DNA of 64,000 nucleotides from a bacterium (GTDB lineage Bacteria; UBA8248), in NCBI GenBank assembly GCA_965213625.1, contig CBDBZU010000004.1:256001-320000 (forward strand). The letters are read 5' to 3'. Shown in pieces: positions 24,499 through 62,006 of this stretch. How positions within the stretch are numbered: position 1 is the stretch's first letter; each line of letters begins with the position of its first letter. The notes under the pieces are model-generated. The model did not search any database and was not told the origin of the DNA. It saw only the letters and a list, made by a program, of their open reading frames with translations. The translations under genes and the position numbers were made by a program.

Positions 24499-26211
24499 CT
24501 AGAAAAGAAAATACCGCTGCGCCATGGGAAGCACTTCTGCGGGCTCGCACGTGAGCGTCACCCCGTCCGCCTTCACCACGTAGGTTTCGGGGTCCACCTC
24601 GATATCGGGCAAGGCGTCGTTGAGCTTCATGTCCTTCTTGCCGATGGAGCGGCAGTTCGAGACGGGCGCCACAATCTTGCCCAGACCCAGCGCGTCGCCC
24701 AATCGATCCTCGGCCGCCGCCTGTGAGACGAAGGCATAGGAAGTCGGTCCGACCGCTTTCCCCATCGAGCCGAACATAGGCCGGCCCAGGACGGGCTGCG
24801 GGGTGGGGATGGAAGCGTTGGGATCGCCCATCGCCGCGTGGGCGATGAAGCCGCCCTTCACCACGACTTCTGGCTTCACGCCGAAAAAGGCTGGCTTCCA
24901 GAGCACCATGTCCGCCATCTTCCCCACTTCGATAGAGCCCACGTAATCGGAAATCCCGTGCGCGATCGCGGGGTTGATGGTGTATTTCGCCACATAGCGC
25001 CTGGCGCGGTAGTTGTCGTTGGCAGCGCTTTCCTCAGGTAGCGCGCCGCGCTGGCGCTTCATCTTGTCCGCCGTCTGCCAGGTGCGGATGACCACCTCGC
25101 CCACGCGGCCCATGGCCTGGGAATCAGAACCCATCATGCTAAACGCGCCCATGTCGTGGAGAATGTCTTCCGCCGCGATGGTCTCCGCCCGGATTCTCGA
25201 CTCGGCGAAGGCAACGTCCTCTGGAATCTTGCTGTCCAGGTGGTGGCACACCATGAGCATGTCGAGATGCTCGTCCACCGTGTTCACCGTGAAGGGACGC
25301 GTGGGGTTCGTCGAGGAGGGCAGCACGCCCGCCTCCCCGCACACGCGAATGATGTCGGGCGCATGGCCGCCGCCCGCCCCTTCGGTGTGGTAGGTGTGGA
25401 TGGTCCGGCCCTTGAACGCGGCGATGGAGGTCTCGACGAAGCCCGATTCATTCAGCGTATCGGTATGGATGCAGACCTGCACGTCCATATCCTCCGCCAC
25501 GCCGAGGCAGCAATCAATCGCCGCGGGCGTGGTTCCCCAATCCTCATGGAGTTTCAGCCCCACCGCGCCCGCGCGGATCTGCTCCATGAGAGGCGCCGGC
25601 CGCGAGGCGTTTCCCTTGCCCAGGAATCCTAAGTTCATGGGGTATGCCTCCGCCGCCTGGAGCATTCTCGCGATGTTCCACGCGCCAGGCGTGCAGGTGG
25701 TGGCGTTCGTGCCCGTGGCGGGGCCGGTTCCGCCGCCGAACATCGTGGTGACGCCCGAGGAGAGCGCCTCGTCTATCTGCTGGGGACAGATGAAGTGGAT
25801 GTGGGTATCGATGCCGCCCGCGGTGAGTATCATCCCCTCGCCCGCCAGCACTTCCGTGGCGGCGCCGACCGTCATGTCCACCCCCTGCATCAGGTGCGGA
25901 TTTCCCGACTTGCCGACCCCGACTATCTTCCCGTCCTTGATTCCCACGTCCGCCTTCACCACGCCCCAGTAGTCGAGGATCAGCGCGTTCGTGATGAGCA
26001 GGTCGAGCGCTTCAGCCTCGCGCGTCTCGGTGGGGGATTGCCCCATGCCGTCTCTGATGACCTTGCCGCCGCCGAATTTCGACTCATCGCCGTAGACGGT
26101 GCGGTCTTCTTCGACCTCGATGAAAAGCTCGGTGTCGGCGAGGCGCACCTTGTCCCCCACCGTGGGGCCGAACATGTCGGCGTAGGCGCGCCTGTCCATG
26201 CGAAAAGCCAT
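24499..26211 (-). CDS. ureC: Urease subunit alpha
   Basis: [50 protein letters not shown]. Confidence 0.99.
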
Positions 26212-49871: not shown

Positions 49872-49963
49872 GGAGAGATGGCCGAGTGGCTGAAGGCGCT
49901 CGCCTGCTAAGCGAGTAGGCTGGGAAACCGGCCTCGAGGGTTCGAATCCCTCTCTCTCCGCCA
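49872..49963 (+). tRNA. tRNA-Ser(GCT)
   Basis: GGAGAGA/TCTCTCC acceptor stem, CTCGC-CTGCTAA-GCGAG anticodon arm, long variable arm, GTTCGAATC, G discriminator + CCA. Confidence 0.97.
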
Positions 49964-56811: not shown

Positions 56812-56944
56812 CCTGCGATGGAGTCGACCGGCCAGGCGCCCTCGTGGCACCCGGGAGTATCCACTTACCGCTGCTTCCTTCCGGACCTGACGGGGTTCGC
56901 GGGCTCCCGCCGCACGAGACCCAACCGGCCGAATCCATCGCAGG
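56812..56944 (-). ncRNA. ffs: Signal recognition particle RNA (small bacterial SRP RNA, 4.5S)
   Basis: Minus strand contains GTCAGGTCCGGAAGGAAGCAGC in one long hairpin closed by CCTGCGATGGA/TCCATCGCAGG; ffs-dnaX-ybaB-recR synteny. Confidence 0.95.
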
Positions 56945-57235
56945 CTCTTAATGAAATCCTACCTCGTCCCCCGGCCTTTTGGAAGCGGAAGCATCGCCAT
57001 TTTAATGAGGGCGAACCGCGTGACGGATAACCATCCAAATAACATGGCGTTAGGAGGGCATCTCCTTCAGAAAGGCAACATCCATGAGAGGGAACCAACC
57101 CTTAGAATAAATGCCGACTTGCATCGCCATATAACTCGGAATGGGGTTACAATACACCGGTTCAGCTTCAAACTACTAGAAGCCCTCTCGGTACCGTATT
57201 TTTTTCGGGTCAAACACGGAAAGGCCAACGGACGC

Positions 57236-58099
57236 ATGTCTTACTCGAAAGTCGTCGAACTTACTGAGGGAAAGGTTTACGTCCTCCACAATACATTTCC
57301 TCTGGATGGTCGCATAAGCGCATATCCCATCAGCGCGCGCGGGCACAGCGTCTCAAACTGCTATCTTTTGAAAGATGATTCAGGTGCGGTTCTGCTTGAT
57401 ACCGGCTACGCCACTCACGAGGCCGAAATCCTGGCGCAGCTGGAATCCCTCATCGAACCGGATACGCCCCTGCATCTGCTACCGCTGCGCATCAATGAAT
57501 TCATGTCGGTGGGCAACGCCATGGCGATCGCCAAACGCTTCAACGTGGTGGAGTGCCTCGCCCCCGTGCCGGAAATCAACGAATGGCTCGAGTTCGAAGC
57601 GCTCGAACCTAACGGTGGGAACAACGGCAATCCCATTCTTCCCACCACGATATTGAAACCGCTCCATCCCATCGAAATCGGAGATAGATATATCGAGGTG
57701 ATGATCGCGCCGATTCGCCTCATCAGCACCCGCTGGATTTACGATGCCGCCACACGCACGCTGTTCACCTCGGACTTGTTCAGTCACCTTTGGGCGGATA
57801 GCGCGGAAGGCCCATGGCTGCTGGATGAAGACAAGGTGACGACGACTTCTTTCGTTCGCTCTTTCTTGCTAAACACGCGCTACTGGTGGCTCGAAGGCGC
57901 GAGGACGGACTCCATCCGCAAAGGAATCGCCGAAGTCTTCGAGCGCTATGAGATCGAGACCATCGCTCCGGGCTACGGCGCCATCCTGCGCGGGCGTCAT
58001 CTGGTAGAGCAGCAATTCGCCGTGCTGGATGAGGTTCTGGCGGGTCTCGACCGGAGCGTCGTCAAGCCAGGGTACGTCGCGCTGGGCTTGGAGAGATAG
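57236..58099 (+). CDS. Metallo-beta-lactamase-fold protein with degenerate metal motif
   Basis: NCYLL......VLLDTG, WIYD..TRTLFTSDLF, IAPGYG; HxExxH motif replaced by LRINEFMS. Confidence 0.7.
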   Translation: MSYSKVVELTEGKVYVLHNTFPLDGRISAYPISARGHSVSNCYLLKDDSGAVLLDTGYATHEAEILAQLESLIEPDTPLHLLPLRINEFMSVGNAMAIAKRFNVVECLAPVPEINEWLEFEALEPNGGNNGNPILPTTILKPLHPIEIGDRYIEVMIAPIRLISTRWIYDAATRTLFTSDLFSHLWADSAEGPWLLDEDKVTTTSFVRSFLLNTRYWWLEGARTDSIRKGIAEVFERYEIETIAPGYGAILRGRHLVEQQFAVLDEVLAGLDRSVVKPGYVALGLER

Positions 58100-58107
58100 G
58101 AGCGCGC

Positions 58108-58869
58108 ATGAGTCATCCCCTGCCCCGTGAAGTCTCGCCCGGCGTCTTCTGGCTAGGTGACTGCCTCGTACAGCACTCTCAGGGCAAAATCTATCACTCC
58201 TACAACGCGGCCTTCCTCATTATCGGCTCAGAGGCCTCCATGCTCGTGGAGACGGGACATCCCAAAGATTTCCCCATTATCGAACGACAGATGAGAGATA
58301 TCCTTGCCAAAGGCGGCGGGCCGCTCAAACACCTTTTCCTCACCCATCAGGAAACGCCCCACTCGGGTGGTCTGGGCCGCGTGCTCGACAGATACCCCGA
58401 CCTCACCATCCACGGGGACATGTGCGACTACCATCTCGCATTTCCCGAGCACGAAGGCCGCTTTAAGGAAATGCGCGTGGGAGACGCCATCGACTTAGGC
58501 GATACGAAATTCATGGCCGTGGAGCCGGTGATCAGGGATTTGAGGAGTTCTCTCTGGGGATACGAGACCAAAGGTCGCGTACTGTTTCCCGGAGACGGCT
58601 TCGCCTACAGCCACTACCATACCGATGGTCACTGCGGGATGTTCGCCGAGGAGGCCACCTCTCTCGATCTGGTCGACGTGCTGGGCGTTTTCGCCGAACG
58701 CGCCCTGTTCTGGACCACCTTCACCGACATGAACATCTACGCCGATAAACTCGAAGAGTTGATGGCCGAGTTAAACGTCGAAGTTGTTGCACCGACGCAC
58801 GGCCTCCCCATCCGGGACATAGCGCAAACGATGCCCAAGGTGAGAGAGGGCCTCGTCCAGGGCAATTGA
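58108..58869 (+). CDS. Metallo-beta-lactamase-fold protein, flavodiiron/ODP-like, no flavodoxin domain
   Basis: NAAFLI, LVETG, THQETPHSGG, VLFPGDGF, VAPTHG. Confidence 0.75.
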   Translation: MSHPLPREVSPGVFWLGDCLVQHSQGKIYHSYNAAFLIIGSEASMLVETGHPKDFPIIERQMRDILAKGGGPLKHLFLTHQETPHSGGLGRVLDRYPDLTIHGDMCDYHLAFPEHEGRFKEMRVGDAIDLGDTKFMAVEPVIRDLRSSLWGYETKGRVLFPGDGFAYSHYHTDGHCGMFAEEATSLDLVDVLGVFAERALFWTTFTDMNIYADKLEELMAELNVEVVAPTHGLPIRDIAQTMPKVREGLVQGN

Positions 58870-58906: not shown

Positions 58907-59305
58907 CTAGACGTCCTCCACCAGTTCCCACAGCGTGCCCATGGTGCTCTTGGGCTTGATAAAAGCGATGAGATGCCCGCCGAAGCCGGGCCTTGATTTC
59001 TCATCGATGAGTTCGAAGCCCTGCGCCTTCATGTCAGCCAGCACGCCGTCGATGTTCTTCACGTCGAAGGCCACGTGATGGAGACCCTCGCCCCGCTCTT
59101 CGATAAACTTGGCGAGAGGCGTATCCTGCTTGATGGGCGAAATGGGCTCGATGAGGTCGCCGCCCAGGTCCATCATGGCCAGATCGGTCGCACCGTCGGC
59201 GGAAGTCTCCCTCGCGAGCAGTTTCGCACCCATGCCTTCATAAAGAGCGATGGCGGCGTCCATGTCTTTCACCGCGACGCCGATGTGATGAAATTTGTTG
59301 AACAT
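58907..59305 (-). CDS. VOC family protein, methylmalonyl-CoA epimerase-like
   Basis: HHIGVAV.D, FIE.RGEGLHHVAF.V, LID...RPG..G..IAF..PKST.G.L.ELVE. Confidence 0.85.
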   Translation of the reverse strand: MFNKFHHIGVAVKDMDAAIALYEGMGAKLLARETSADGATDLAMMDLGGDLIEPISPIKQDTPLAKFIEERGEGLHHVAFDVKNIDGVLADMKAQGFELIDEKSRPGFGGHLIAFIKPKSTMGTLWELVEDV

Positions 59306-59498
59306 ATCCTTATTTCCTCCTTGTCAGGCGCAGCGAGGGGATTCATCCTCCTCGCCGCATCGATGTTTCGAAGATGTTTAGCAGGCTTCCCGGTATTCCA
59401 CAATCAAACCCGCCCGGGAAACTATACTTGGCAAAGCGTTTGCCGTATCCTGCGCGCATCAGCGAAATCATGCGAAACACATTTATGAGGAGAAATCC

Positions 59499-60059
59499 AT
59501 GACAGATCCCATCGACGGACACAGCACCTCCACCGTGCCGGGCGAGCGCGTCATCGACAAGCCGGAACTCCCCAAAGGTGGACTGTATACGGACAATACC
59601 GTCCACACCGAGATGCACGAAGGCTCCCTCCAGCTCAAACGCGGTACGGCGGGCGATTTCGAGATTTTCTGCGACGAGGGCGCGCACATCGGCGGTTCGG
59701 CCCAATACCCCACGCCTATGGCTTATCTCGCCATGGCGACAGGCTTCTGACTGCTTACCCAGGTGTCGCGGTACGCGCACATGATGAAAATGGAAATCAA
59801 GGGGGCGAGCGTCTCGGTCCGGTTCCGCAAGCTGCTGGGCGGCTCCGTGCTCAAGGGCACAGTCTTCAACAAGTGGGAGGCCGTGGACACGCACTTGAAA
59901 GTCGAATCGGACGAGCCTGCCGAGAAACTCGCGCATCTCATCAAGAACGCCAAGAACGGCTGCTTCGCCGAGGCCCTCATAACCGAGCCCGTGCCGCTCA
60001 ACTCCACCGTGGAGGTGAACGGCGAACCCTTCAATATAGAGGGCGTGACGGCGGATTAA
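59499..60059 (+). CDS. OsmC/Ohr-like protein, probable selenoprotein (Sec at TGA 59748-59750)
   Basis: ORFs 59499-59750 and 59763-60059 are in frame and join as DEG...GG....PTPMAYLAMATGF-U-LLTQVSRYA ... AKNGCFAE; SECIS-like hairpin follows the TGA. Confidence 0.85.
59763..59780 (+). promoter_or_regulatory. Candidate bacterial SECIS element
   Basis: GTG-T(bulge)-CGCG-GTA-CGCG-CAC starting 13 nt after the TGA, apical GU at +21/+22. Confidence 0.55.
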
Positions 60060-60082
60060 CACCCATATATGGAGTTTTTGGT

Positions 60083-60535
60083 ATGGAATATTTCAACGCA
60101 TCAGACGACGTCGCCTTCGGCTCACAGCCTGAGCCCGCCGACCTTGAATCCCTCGCGGCCAGAGGTGTGAAGACCATCATCAACACGCGTTTTCCCGAAG
60201 AAGACCAGGGCGATCTCCCGCCCGATCGCGCCAAAACCGAGGCGGAAGCGCTGGGAATGCGCTACATGAACATCCCCGTCTCGCCGGTCGAGTTCAGCCC
60301 CGCTTCGCTGGCCGAGGTAAGCCGCGCGCTCTCGGAAGCCAAGGCCCACGGGCCTGCGTTCGTACACTGAAAGGCCACTGGGCGAGCCGGGATTTGCTCG
60401 CTGAACCATCTGGCTGATGAGAACGACTGGTCGGCGGGGGATATGGAAGCCGCCGCCGACGCCACAGGCTTCGACTGGCGCGAGGCGCCGCTCGCGCCCA
60501 AGTACCGTGAGTTCTTCGCGCAGAGGCCCGGGTAG
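60083..60535 (+). CDS. DUF442/TIGR01244-like sulfurtransferase (PTP/rhodanese-type loop), probable selenoprotein (Sec at TGA 60368-60370)
   Basis: SQP...L..LA..GVKTIINTR..EE, AE.LGM.Y..IPV, GPAFVH-U-KATGRA, then 54 open codons (incl. ATGFD) to TAG 60533-60535; GGAG RBS. Confidence 0.85.
60381..60402 (+). promoter_or_regulatory. Candidate bacterial SECIS element
   Basis: GGCGAGC-CGGGATTT-GCTCGCT hairpin starting 11 nt after the TGA, G in second loop position. Confidence 0.55.
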
Positions 60536-60679
60536 ACGCAAAGAGGCCGCCGTAGCGCTCTGCCGCAGAGACGCGCTACCCCGCAACTACGCGCATTTGC
60601 CGTAGCTGATCGGCTCGCGGGCCATGGCAGAATTCCCCTGCGCAGCTACCGCTGCGTCCATTCCAGAGCAAATAATTTG

Positions 60680-60723
60680 TCGGTAATTTACCGATTAACC
60701 CCGTGAATTTATCGGTATTTATC
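60680..60723. promoter_or_regulatory. AT-rich 44-bp motif (second copy) containing palindrome TCGGTAA-T-TTACCGA
   Basis: 33/44 ungapped identity to 16879-16922. Confidence 0.45.
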
Positions 60724-60963
60724 GATATATCCAGAAACCCTTGGATATCGAGCCTTTCTCGCCTTTTCCCCTTCACTGAAAACAATCCCCTATTTAGTTG
60801 ATATTATTTCAGTTTAATCATTTTTCAGACTTCTCTCGAACCGAGCCTGCACCGATTCCGGATCGGCCCGGCGGAGTCTGTAATCAAGCCGAAAGCGGAT
60901 TCATTACAACGTCTGCGCGCCCGGGCGCAGGCGGGTCGGCGGTAAGGATGTAAGCGATGGGGT

Positions 60964-61803
60964 GTGTGCCAGGCTAACTGGTGCCAGTGCAGCCGGTGAA
61001 AGTCCGGCAGGAAGGAGAAGGTGAACCGCCACCTCCACCCCGAGTCATGGGCCGCCACTCGCGAGGGTGGGAGTCAAGCGTTGACAGGGGCGCGGGCGGG
61101 GCTATTGAGCATCGAAAGAATTATTGTCCGGGATGTCGAGGTTTTCCCCTCAGCCGAAGACAGCATCCGACCCGCCGATACGGCGAGGCGGGCCGGAATC
61201 CCGCGGTGTCAAAGAACCCACGCACGTACGTACGTACTTCACCGGGACCTGGGAGGTTTCCATGCCATCCCGCCGTAGTGGCGGGGCCGCAGAGGGAAGG
61301 AGGAATCCGTAGTCGATGATGAACGGCATGGAGAAGTCAGACTCAGGGCTAGTAGCCGAGAAGCCGACGAACAAGGGGACGCGAGTTCTGGCGGAGGCGG
61401 TGGAGCGAAGGGCCGGGCCCGAGGGGAATCCGGGAAGCCAAAGCACGCGCCGGACACAGGGCCGGGAAAGCGTGTCACAAGCGGTCGACCGGATACGGCA
61501 ATTCGTTGTACAGGAGCCACGGAGCGTCTGACGACGCTTCTCCACCACGTGACTCCCGATGCGCTGCGCAGGGCGTTCCTCGAGTTAAAGAGGGATGCTA
61601 CGGCATGCGCGGACGGAGTGACGTGGCGGATGTACGCGGAAGGGCTGGAAGGCCGACTGGCCGACCTGCACGAGCGCGTGCACTCGGAAGCTTACCGGGC
61701 GACGCCGTCACGGCGGGTGAACATCTCCAAGCCCGACGGCGGGACACGACCGCTCGGCGTCGCAGCCATCGAGGACAAGATAGTCCAGAAGGCCGTGACG
61801 GAG
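60964..61803 (+). mobile_element. Truncated group II intron (5' ribozyme domains plus start of RT; domains V/VI missing)
   Basis: GTGTGCC 5' end, CCGGTGAAAGTCCGG, CGCGAG, AAGCGTTGACAGGGG, TATTGAGC..CGAAA, GAGAAGTCAGAC elements typical of bacterial group II introns, then an RT frame. Confidence 0.88.
61316..61803 (+). pseudogene. Group II intron reverse transcriptase/maturase, frameshifted and truncated
   Basis: MNGMEKSD...KPTNK, frameshift near 61520, then ERLTTLLHHV, ADGVTW, Y...P.RRV.I.KPDGG.RPLG....EDKIVQ.AV; ends before YADD. Confidence 0.88.
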
Positions 61804-61965
61804 CGAAACATCGCCGTTCACAAGTTCCGAGAGCGTCGCGTGGCGTACGCCGAGTATCCGCGCCGCCGCCGTAACGCTCAACCCGAATTCCTCAAGTATT
61901 TCCAGGCAGATGAAGGCTCTGGGGTGCGAGGGTGGCATCCCCATCTTGATGCCGCCGCTGTTCAT
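61801..61965 (-). pseudogene. Truncated HigA antitoxin
   Basis: MPPSHP.AFI..EILEE.GLSVTAAA.ILGVR.ATLSELVNG..SL, then breaks into antisense RT; EMA.R segment missing. Confidence 0.8.
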
Positions 61966-62006
61966 CAGTGGTAGTCCTCCAGATTCAGACGCTCAATCCC
62001 GCCGTC
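61965..62006 (-). pseudogene. C-terminal remnant of a HigB toxin
   Basis: DGGIERLNLEDYH* with TGATG coupling to the higA start. Confidence 0.7.

Follow-up and report, generated by a model that had tools for sequence, protein, structure and literature searches.

A predicted selenocysteine-containing DUF442 protein encoded beside an OsmC-like selenoprotein in a bacterium of the UBA8248 lineage

Two adjacent genes interrupted by in-frame TGA codons

The subject of this report is a pair of adjacent genes, each interrupted by a single in-frame TGA codon, in an uncultured, marine-type bacterium of the GTDB lineage UBA8248 ([GenBank:GCA_965213625.1]). The pair lies in a stretch of 64,000 nucleotides (nt), hereafter called the window, which covers positions 256,001 to 320,000 of contig CBDBZU010000004.1 (contig 4) in a 4.15-Mb genome with a completeness of 96.6%. 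Gene 1 encodes a protein related to OsmC. Gene 2 encodes a standalone protein of the DUF442 family, with a fold of the protein tyrosine phosphatase (PTP) type. In both genes the TGA codon appears to specify selenocysteine (Sec, U). The two genes were inspected in the + strand frames of positions 59200-60900, and positions refer to the window unless a contig or locus is named. The features of the pair, including the putative selenocysteine insertion sequence (SECIS) hairpins, are as follows (aa, amino acids).

59487-59492, + strand: GAGGAG resembling a Shine-Dalgarno sequence, 6 nt ahead of the gene 1 start (read from the sequence)
59499-60059, + strand: gene 1, predicted OsmC-like selenoprotein of 186 aa with U84, C155 and the motif F-U-L-L-T (translation, Pfam, NCBIfam)
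59748-59750, + strand: in-frame TGA of gene 1, U84, at the first conserved cysteine (Cys) position of OsmC-type proteins (sequence, alignment with PDB entry 3cje)
59763-59780, + strand: putative SECIS hairpin of gene 1, GUGUCGCG-GUA-CGCGCAC with a bulged U, starting 12 nt after the TGA
59961-59963, + strand: TGC encoding C155, which is the second conserved Cys in the OsmC-like protein and a candidate for its resolving residue (alignment)
60071-60074, + strand: GGAG in the intergenic gap, 8 nt before the start of gene 2 (read from the sequence)
60083-60535, + strand: gene 2, predicted standalone DUF442 (PTP-fold) selenoprotein of 150 aa with the P-loop H-U-K-A-T-G-R-A-G-I-C-S-L (translation, Pfam, structure model)
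60368-60370, + strand: in-frame TGA of gene 2, U96, at the position of the P-loop nucleophile (sequence, alignment)
60381-60402, + strand: putative SECIS hairpin of gene 2, a 7-bp stem GGCGAGC/GCUCGCU with the 8-nt loop CGGGAUUU, starting 10 nt after the TGA
60395-60397, + strand: TGC codon of C105 (U+9), in the 3' arm of the gene 2 hairpin (alignment of the Sec subfamily)

Gene 1 starts with ATG at 59499 and stops with TAA at 60057-60059, and gene 2 starts with ATG at 60083 and stops with TAG at 60533-60535. Under translation table 11 the TGA splits gene 1 into pieces of 83 and 98 aa, and reading it as U gives the single frame of 186 aa. An earlier inspection of this DNA, made from the letters only (the sequence-only reading), had described two co-oriented genes 23 nt apart, with each TGA on the catalytic Cys codon of its family and a hairpin shortly downstream. 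This description is borne out. The gap spans 60060-60082, U84 takes the place of the first Cys of 3cje, U96 falls on the P-loop Cys in alignments with the DUF442 structure 2f46 and with the phosphatase TpbA, and both hairpins are present at the distances listed above. Because the gap is so short and gene 2 has a ribosome-binding site of its own, the two genes are probably co-transcribed in this genome. The scan of 59200-60900 for promoters and terminators returned no site on the + strand.

Decoding of the two UGA codons

The sequence-only reading had named selA, selB, selC and selD as the genes to look for, and all four are present. selA scores 505 bits, and selB (388 bits, cut-off 242) adjoins it about 70 kb before the window. 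A tRNA-SeC with the anticodon tca is found in the genome. The selD gene (333 bits; contig 4, 1518852-1519814, + strand) itself has one in-frame TGA, and thus represents a Sec-containing selenophosphate synthetase. Three OsmC-Sec genes, two DUF442-Sec genes and the Sec-containing SelD fit a selenoprotein-rich organism. In the available part of the BSepDB paper (PMC13326102), metagenome-assembled genomes (MAGs) labelled GTDB UBA8248 are among the bacteria richest in selenoproteins, with 48-54 genes.

The TGA codons are not peculiar to this assembly; they are common to all the relatives examined. In a search of 61 genomes (this genome and 60 relatives), homologues of gene 2 turned up in every one of the other 22 genomes in its genus and in 31 of the 36 in its family, and nearly all full-length matches hold exactly one TGA. 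Homologues of gene 1 are present in 36/36 genomes of the family, mostly as multiple paralogues with one TGA apiece. A profile search with gene 2 in 51 genomes of the phylum gave 60 places, 57 of which are full-length with an in-frame TGA (one TGA in 56 of them, two in the remaining one). These 57 span 35 of the 51 genomes; the same search gave no match in the nine genomes of the other three families of the phylum. Among orthologues of the genus, U occupies one and the same alignment column in 20/20 sequences, for gene 1 and for gene 2 alike, and the column of gene 2 is kept in 17 further homologues.

The sequence downstream of each TGA also behaves as coding sequence. Ratios of nonsynonymous to synonymous divergence (dN/dS; Nei-Gojobori, 190 pairs from 20 orthologous loci per gene) are 0.131 upstream and 0.096 downstream of the TGA in gene 1, and 0.161 and 0.179, respectively, in gene 2. 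The relaxation past the TGA that would have spoken against selenoproteins is thus not seen; since the ratios are about equal on both sides, purifying selection acts on the stretch past the TGA as it does on the one ahead of it. Directly after each TGA, dS dips: it is 0.165 in the first 20 codons of gene 1 vs 0.57 further on, and 0.22 vs 0.52 in gene 2. An overlapping RNA signal would produce such a dip.

As the sequence-only reading had suspected, gene callers cut such genes short. Among 41 relatives of gene 2 in a collection of 5.8 billion proteins, 40 are 95 aa long and end at ...V-H, just before the TGA; one of them is named "sulfur transferase domain-containing protein". Although gene callers end the proteins at the TGA and single-sequence folds of the hairpins carry no significance, it is highly improbable that these codons are true stops (nonsense mutations, pseudogenes or assembly errors), given the identical TGA column in all relatives, the purifying selection that persists beyond it and the full Sec machinery, or that TGA stands for an ordinary amino acid in this organism, given that homologues hold Cys in that column, not Trp or Gly, and that TGA is a real terminator in several orthologues (for example, after ...RP in L017, L024 and L025). 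By comparative evidence, gene 1 and gene 2 are likely both genuine selenoprotein genes. SelB and tRNA-Sec would decode each UGA as Sec, guided by a short bacterial SECIS hairpin that lies inside the coding sequence, 10-12 nt past the UGA.

The hairpins as SECIS candidates

The hairpins are taken to be more than chance structures because of comparative evidence alone. The 18-nt hairpin of gene 1 is identical in 20/20 orthologues of the genus, with a dS of about 0.57 elsewhere. Its four core pairs are kept in 20/20 distinct sequences, other genera and paralogues included, with one compensatory change from C-G to G-C, in this genome's own paralogue. The outer two pairs have a different register in this genus, owing to the bulged U. 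In gene 2, the stem GGCGRGC/GCUCGCU with the loop CGGGNUNU recurs in each of 29 distinct sequences, whose protein identity goes down to 39%. Pairing holds in 203/203 cells of this set vs 32-56% when the partner is slid. Five of the pairs are invariant and two vary between G-U and A-U only.

Several observations weigh against these hairpins as SECIS elements. First, taken singly, the two hairpins of the window fold no better than shuffled sequence (z of -0.51 and -1.14). Second, an Rfam search of 59000-61000 with E up to 10 returned no SECIS family, only three chance-level matches. Third, the gene 2 hairpin shows no double compensatory change in the 29 distinct sequences, and its support is conservation. 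Part of this conservation could stem from the invariant residues G-R-A-G-x-C-S-L that the stem encodes. On the other side stands the codon usage: G100, A102, G103, C105 and S106 each use one codon in 32/32 sequences, and R101 is CGA or CGG only, either of which pairs with U, vs 3-6 codons each for the invariant Gly, Pro, Arg, Thr and Leu residues elsewhere in gene 2. Protein constraint alone is therefore not enough, and the single-codon use argues for constraint at the RNA level. A hairpin frozen over invariant G-R-A-G-x-C-S-L codons would be a clean example of a SECIS element shaping a protein sequence.

Gene 1 belongs to a known selenoprotein family

Gene 1 matches Pfam OsmC (49.5 bits, cut-off 27.5) and the NCBIfam model NF041052, "OsmC-related (seleno)protein" or OsmC_like_Se (166.7 bits, cut-off 95). 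U84 and C155 align with the first and second Cys of 3cje, an OsmC-like structure that represents the Cys counterpart, and both residues are invariant in the 13-sequence alignment A4. The protein is most likely a hydroperoxide reductase, as suggested by analogy with its relatives. By the OsmC/Ohr mechanism, the peroxidatic role would fall to U84 and the resolving role to C155.

The motif F-U-L-L-T makes gene 1 a member of an already described family, and the sequence-only reading, which had regarded the pair as hidden, is not supported in this respect. An OsmC-like selenoprotein whose motif is UxxT was described in 2005 from the Sargasso Sea (PMC1088965) and again from data of the Global Ocean Sampling (GOS) in 2008 (PMC2398784), and is listed in a 2022 review (PMC9312934), as far as the available parts of these three papers go; it is also included in Table 1 of a 2026 review (PMC13188914). 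Like this family (NF041052; COG1765/PF02566), gene 1 has the U-x-x-T motif, the second conserved Cys and a SECIS hairpin past the UGA. It differs in nothing essential, but carries about 33 additional, conserved aa at its N terminus, before the match to NF041052 (residues 34-175). Gene 1 thus adds nothing new to the catalogue.

OsmC-like selenoproteins are strongly expanded in this lineage. This genome has three OsmC-Sec paralogues and two DUF442-Sec paralogues, with a single in-frame TGA apiece. Relatives have as many as 12 OsmC-like matches (12 in G035), some of them in tandem. The further copies in this genome are as follows.

contig 4, 3821923-3822474, - strand: OsmC-like paralogue, one in-frame TGA
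contig 4, 1340309-1340830, - strand: OsmC-like paralogue, one in-frame TGA
contig 4, 3626688-3627128, - strand: second DUF442-Sec paralogue, one in-frame TGA

Gene 2 appears to found an uncatalogued selenoprotein family

Gene 2 matches Pfam PF04273 (BLH_phosphatase/DUF442) with 45.7 bits against a cut-off of 26.1. Its P-loop H-U-x-x-x-G-R is of the CX4R type and matches the Y-C-R-T-G-T-R stretch of 2f46. The scores for TIGR01244 (46.2 bits, cut-off 85.85) and for the Blh equivalog NF040641 (53.6 bits, cut-off 625) lie below the respective cut-offs, and gene 2 is therefore not filed under either of them. An AlphaFold2 model built on an alignment of 113 rows has a predicted local distance difference test score (pLDDT) of 96.7. 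In Foldseek the best matches of this model are 2f46 and 3gxg/3gxh, all DUF442 proteins, with template modelling (TM) scores of 0.71-0.74; dual-specificity and atypical phosphatases rank next. When 1.84 billion representatives were searched with a profile, 7802 relatives came up (E up to 0.001), the best of which are mostly standalone proteins of about 150 aa.

The column of U96 holds Cys in 90 of the 96 non-Sec database homologues in the alignment. The closest homologue, P0033, is a metagenomic protein of 162 aa with 51% identity, a full-length Cys form with the sequence V-H-C-K-A-I-G-R-A-G-V-C-S. In the phylogenetic tree the Sec clade is set apart from the Cys forms (support 100/99), and P0033 falls inside the Sec clade; it looks like a recent Sec-to-Cys conversion. 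P0033 and the Sec forms would thereby offer a natural Sec/Cys pair for testing what selenium contributes to DUF442-type sulfur transfer. Another mark of the subfamily is C105 (U+9), which is Cys in 17/17 Sec-subfamily rows vs 2/96 other homologues. The latter mostly have L, F or M at this position, which suggests a buried helix position. C105 may act as the resolving partner of U96, or it may owe its presence to the hairpin, whose 3' arm includes its codon.

Two irregular copies were also encountered in relatives. A DUF442 paralogue at G010:C5:285649-286089 contains two TGA codons, and a DUF442-like remnant at G009:C10:131444-131716 has an in-frame TAA and is probably a pseudogene.

The most recent inventory of prokaryotic selenoproteins, by its own words the most comprehensive (PMC13188914, May 2026), lists 119 families or subfamilies. 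Its Table 1 has no entry for PF04273, TIGR01244, DUF442, a phosphatase or a lactamase, and neither "tyrosine" nor "persulfide" is mentioned in its text. In NCBIfam release 20 gene 2 is matched by Cys-type models alone and by no selenoprotein model. A search for bacterial tyrosine-phosphatase selenocysteine proteins found no relevant paper among the 12 listed out of 16, as judged by titles and abstracts. Likewise, the literature search found no paper that brings DUF442 and selenoproteins together; supplementary tables, including those of the BSepDB paper (PMC13326102), were outside its scope and might list such a protein, which counts against the novelty of the family. Gene 2 thus appears to be an uncatalogued member of a new, lineage-restricted selenoprotein family, which seems limited to a single bacterial family within a small phylum that is rich in selenoproteins. 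As far as seen, it would be the first selenoenzyme with Sec in place of Cys in a PTP-like fold. The importance of gene 2 is modest: the catalogue of prokaryotic selenoproteins would apparently grow by one family and by one new class of fold (PTP-like/DUF442), and a curated model would mend the annotation in at least 35 genomes of the phylum.

Gene order around the pair

The sequence-only reading had gone further and taken the two genes for a dedicated two-selenoprotein module. In a co-evolving module of this kind, the two proteins might act together in a selenium-dependent relay for peroxide or sulfane sulfur, in which DUF442-Sec would, for example, recycle the selenol of OsmC or persulfidate it. 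The co-orientation, the 23-nt gap and the ribosome-binding site favor this idea. So does the spacing between the OsmC and DUF442 matches, held at 24-28 nt in 17 of the 23 genomes of the genus across 78-99% protein identity, and co-localised selenoprotein genes often share a pathway (PMC13188914, section 9). However, the arrangement loosens within the genus and is absent from the genomes examined beyond it. Of the remaining genomes of the genus, three have spacings of 76, 83 and 211 nt, two have the pair split by 700 nt (G009) and by 6.8 kb (6827 nt; G015), and one is fragmented (G017). In G023, G028, G031 and G035, which represent the other genera that have both genes, the best matches lie on different contigs, and tight adjacency of OsmC-Sec and DUF442-Sec was found in no genome examined outside the genus. 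The OsmC-Sec orthologues of other genera have no neighbour in common with the window.

Another partner of the DUF442-Sec gene emerges from 15 loci outside the OsmC context (L058-L072), which come from other genera and from the second paralogue of this genus and whose open reading frames (ORFs) were clustered by BLAST. In 13 of them a homologous gene of 281-312 aa lies on the same strand, 24-132 nt upstream, and 14 share a downstream gene of 564-595 aa at a distance of 35-190 nt. In two loci Pfam identifies the upstream gene as Transglut_core2 (PF13369) and the downstream gene as IlvD; the other loci are assigned by BLAST clustering. The transglutaminase-like gene is found, for example, at the following positions.

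L061, 4002-4937: transglutaminase-like gene
L070, 5465-6307: transglutaminase-like gene
contig 4 of this genome, ~3,626,685-3,628,000: paralogous locus of DUF442-Sec, with the transglutaminase-like gene at ~3,627,150-3,628,000

Further upstream of this gene, in the two loci checked, are a squalene/phytoene-synthase gene and an amine-oxidase gene, a pair that we take to be of the hopanoid-type, hpnCDE-like kind. As judged by gene order, the partnership of DUF442-Sec with the transglutaminase-like gene is more conserved than that with OsmC. In the phylogenetic tree the DUF442-Sec copy of the window is sister to the copies in the transglutaminase context. This suggests that the gene moved next to OsmC-Sec in the ancestor of the genus, a relocation that speaks against a dedicated module.

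Tandem OsmC-Sec genes occur in G035, G028 and G034. Since selenoprotein genes often lie in tandem or side by side in this lineage, and related MAGs are reported to carry 48-54 of them (PMC13326102), a chance adjacency fixed by descent is plausible. A dedicated module is therefore unlikely: the adjacency is that of 17 out of 23 genomes in one genus, with none elsewhere among the genomes examined, and conservation across divergent lineages is not observed. What does stand of the earlier proposal is that a pairing of OsmC-like and DUF442 selenoproteins has not been described. Section 9 of PMC13188914 gives as known clusters grdA-grdB, prdB-prdC, frhA-frhD-hdrA, Prx with SelW-like, Prx-like with AhpD-like, and the Sao and Tso operons, and this pairing is absent from them. 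Like those clusters, the window has two selenoprotein genes adjacent on one strand; unlike them, its pairing is conserved in one genus only. The adjacency would thus be a genus-level arrangement, rather than a conserved two-component system. A two-selenoprotein system would have been the larger result, but the comparative data support genus-level synteny only.

Potential function of the DUF442-Sec protein

By analogy with its Cys-type relatives, gene 2 is most likely a carrier of sulfane sulfur or selenium. This proposal is made because DUF442 domains of the Cys type have measured sulfurtransferase activity: in the available parts of two papers, the isolated domain shows thiosulfate:cyanide and glutathione-dependent sulfurtransferase activity (PMC5823870), and its active-site Cys is needed in vivo, as seen with C94S (PMC9163753). 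An adduct on U96, either Se-S or Se-Se, would hold the sulfane sulfur or selenium until its transfer to an acceptor. Gene 2 shares its fold with the DUF442/PF04273 sulfurtransferases, which include the sulfurtransferase (ST) domain of Blh from Xylella and Agrobacterium, the DUF442 domain of Cupriavidus SQR, and 2f46 and 3gxg (Foldseek TM of 0.74 to both). Its nucleophile occupies the same CX4R P-loop position, at which the Cys of those domains is needed for rhodanese-type activity, according to the available parts of the sources cited above. Gene 2 differs from them in having Sec in place of Cys, in being a standalone protein of 150 aa that is fused to neither SQR nor persulfide dioxygenase (PDO), and in the sequence A-G-[IVL]-C-S-L after the Arg, with its subfamily-specific Cys at U+9. 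No sqr or pdo gene was seen in the neighbourhoods of DUF442-Sec loci that were checked.

The rhodanese-like selenoproteins (forms 1-5 in Table 1 of PMC13188914) set a precedent for selenium-based carriers of sulfane sulfur, being sulfurtransferases with Sec for the catalytic Cys, as proposed for gene 2. However, the folds are unrelated (PTP-like PF04273 in gene 2 vs PF00581), and gene 2 has no PF00581 match.

Two points weigh against a carrier role. The identity of gene 2 to the solved DUF442 structures is 18-20%, so that its function is extrapolated from distant Cys homologues, and its TIGR01244 score stays below the cut-off. The latter would also suit a Sec-dependent phosphatase, arsenate reductase or redox sensor with a PTP-type P-loop, in place of a sulfurtransferase. 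Past the DUF442 structures, the fold of gene 2 indeed matches TpbA, Tk-PTP, PTPMT1 and PFA-DSP1, and two arsenate-reductase selenoprotein families exist (TIGR00014 and NF041106; Table 1 of PMC13188914). This alternative is nevertheless decidedly improbable. The best matches in both sequence and fold are DUF442 proteins, the CX4R P-loop is like that of 2f46 vs CX5R in classical phosphatases, and no phosphatase-linked neighbours were seen in the loci checked. In our own estimation, a selenolate would also be a poorer choice for phosphoryl transfer than for sulfur or selenium transfer.

Taken together, it is likely that both genes encode selenoproteins, gene 1 of a known family and gene 2 of an uncatalogued Sec-DUF442 family with a probable role as sulfur or selenium carrier, and that their adjacency is a feature of the genus. 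A bolder scenario, offered tentatively and with rather little chance of being right, is that gene 2 represents a natural selenoprotein family that would be the first to have a PTP fold, and that it was recruited beside an OsmC selenoperoxidase into a peroxide/persulfide relay, with the SirB1-type protein of PF13369 as the ancestral partner. If this were true, the pairing of DUF442-Sec with the transglutaminase-like gene would offer an initial clue to what the uncharacterised SirB1-like family does.

Other elements around the pair

Two genes of the metallo-beta-lactamase fold lie upstream of gene 1.

56951-58099, + strand: metallo-beta-lactamase-fold gene
58108-58869, + strand: metallo-beta-lactamase-fold gene with H-Q-E-T-P-H in place of the usual metal-binding motif

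Their matches to Lactamase_B and ODP are weak. We take the H-Q-E-T-P-H motif to be diiron-like, rather than a dioxygenase motif. A split Blh-like system, in which these genes would supply the persulfide dioxygenase partner of gene 2, was considered and is unsupported, given the weak Pfam matches and the lack of clustering with the G009 and G015 loci.

A group II intron RNA, followed by a short ORF, begins some 460 nt downstream of gene 2.

60999-61218, + strand: group II intron D1-D4 RNA (Rfam RF02005, 163.7 bits)
61549-61974, + strand: ORF of 141 aa with no Pfam match

The ORF looks like the N-terminal part of an intron reverse transcriptase, and the intron is probably a truncated mobile intron at the edge of a rearranged region. 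The gathering-level Rfam matches elsewhere in the window include the bacterial small RNA of the signal recognition particle (SRP), a tRNA and a small RNA.

56827-56926, - strand: bacterial small SRP RNA
49872-49960, + strand: tRNA
25770-26047, + strand: match to "5_ureB_sRNA" (86.9 bits)

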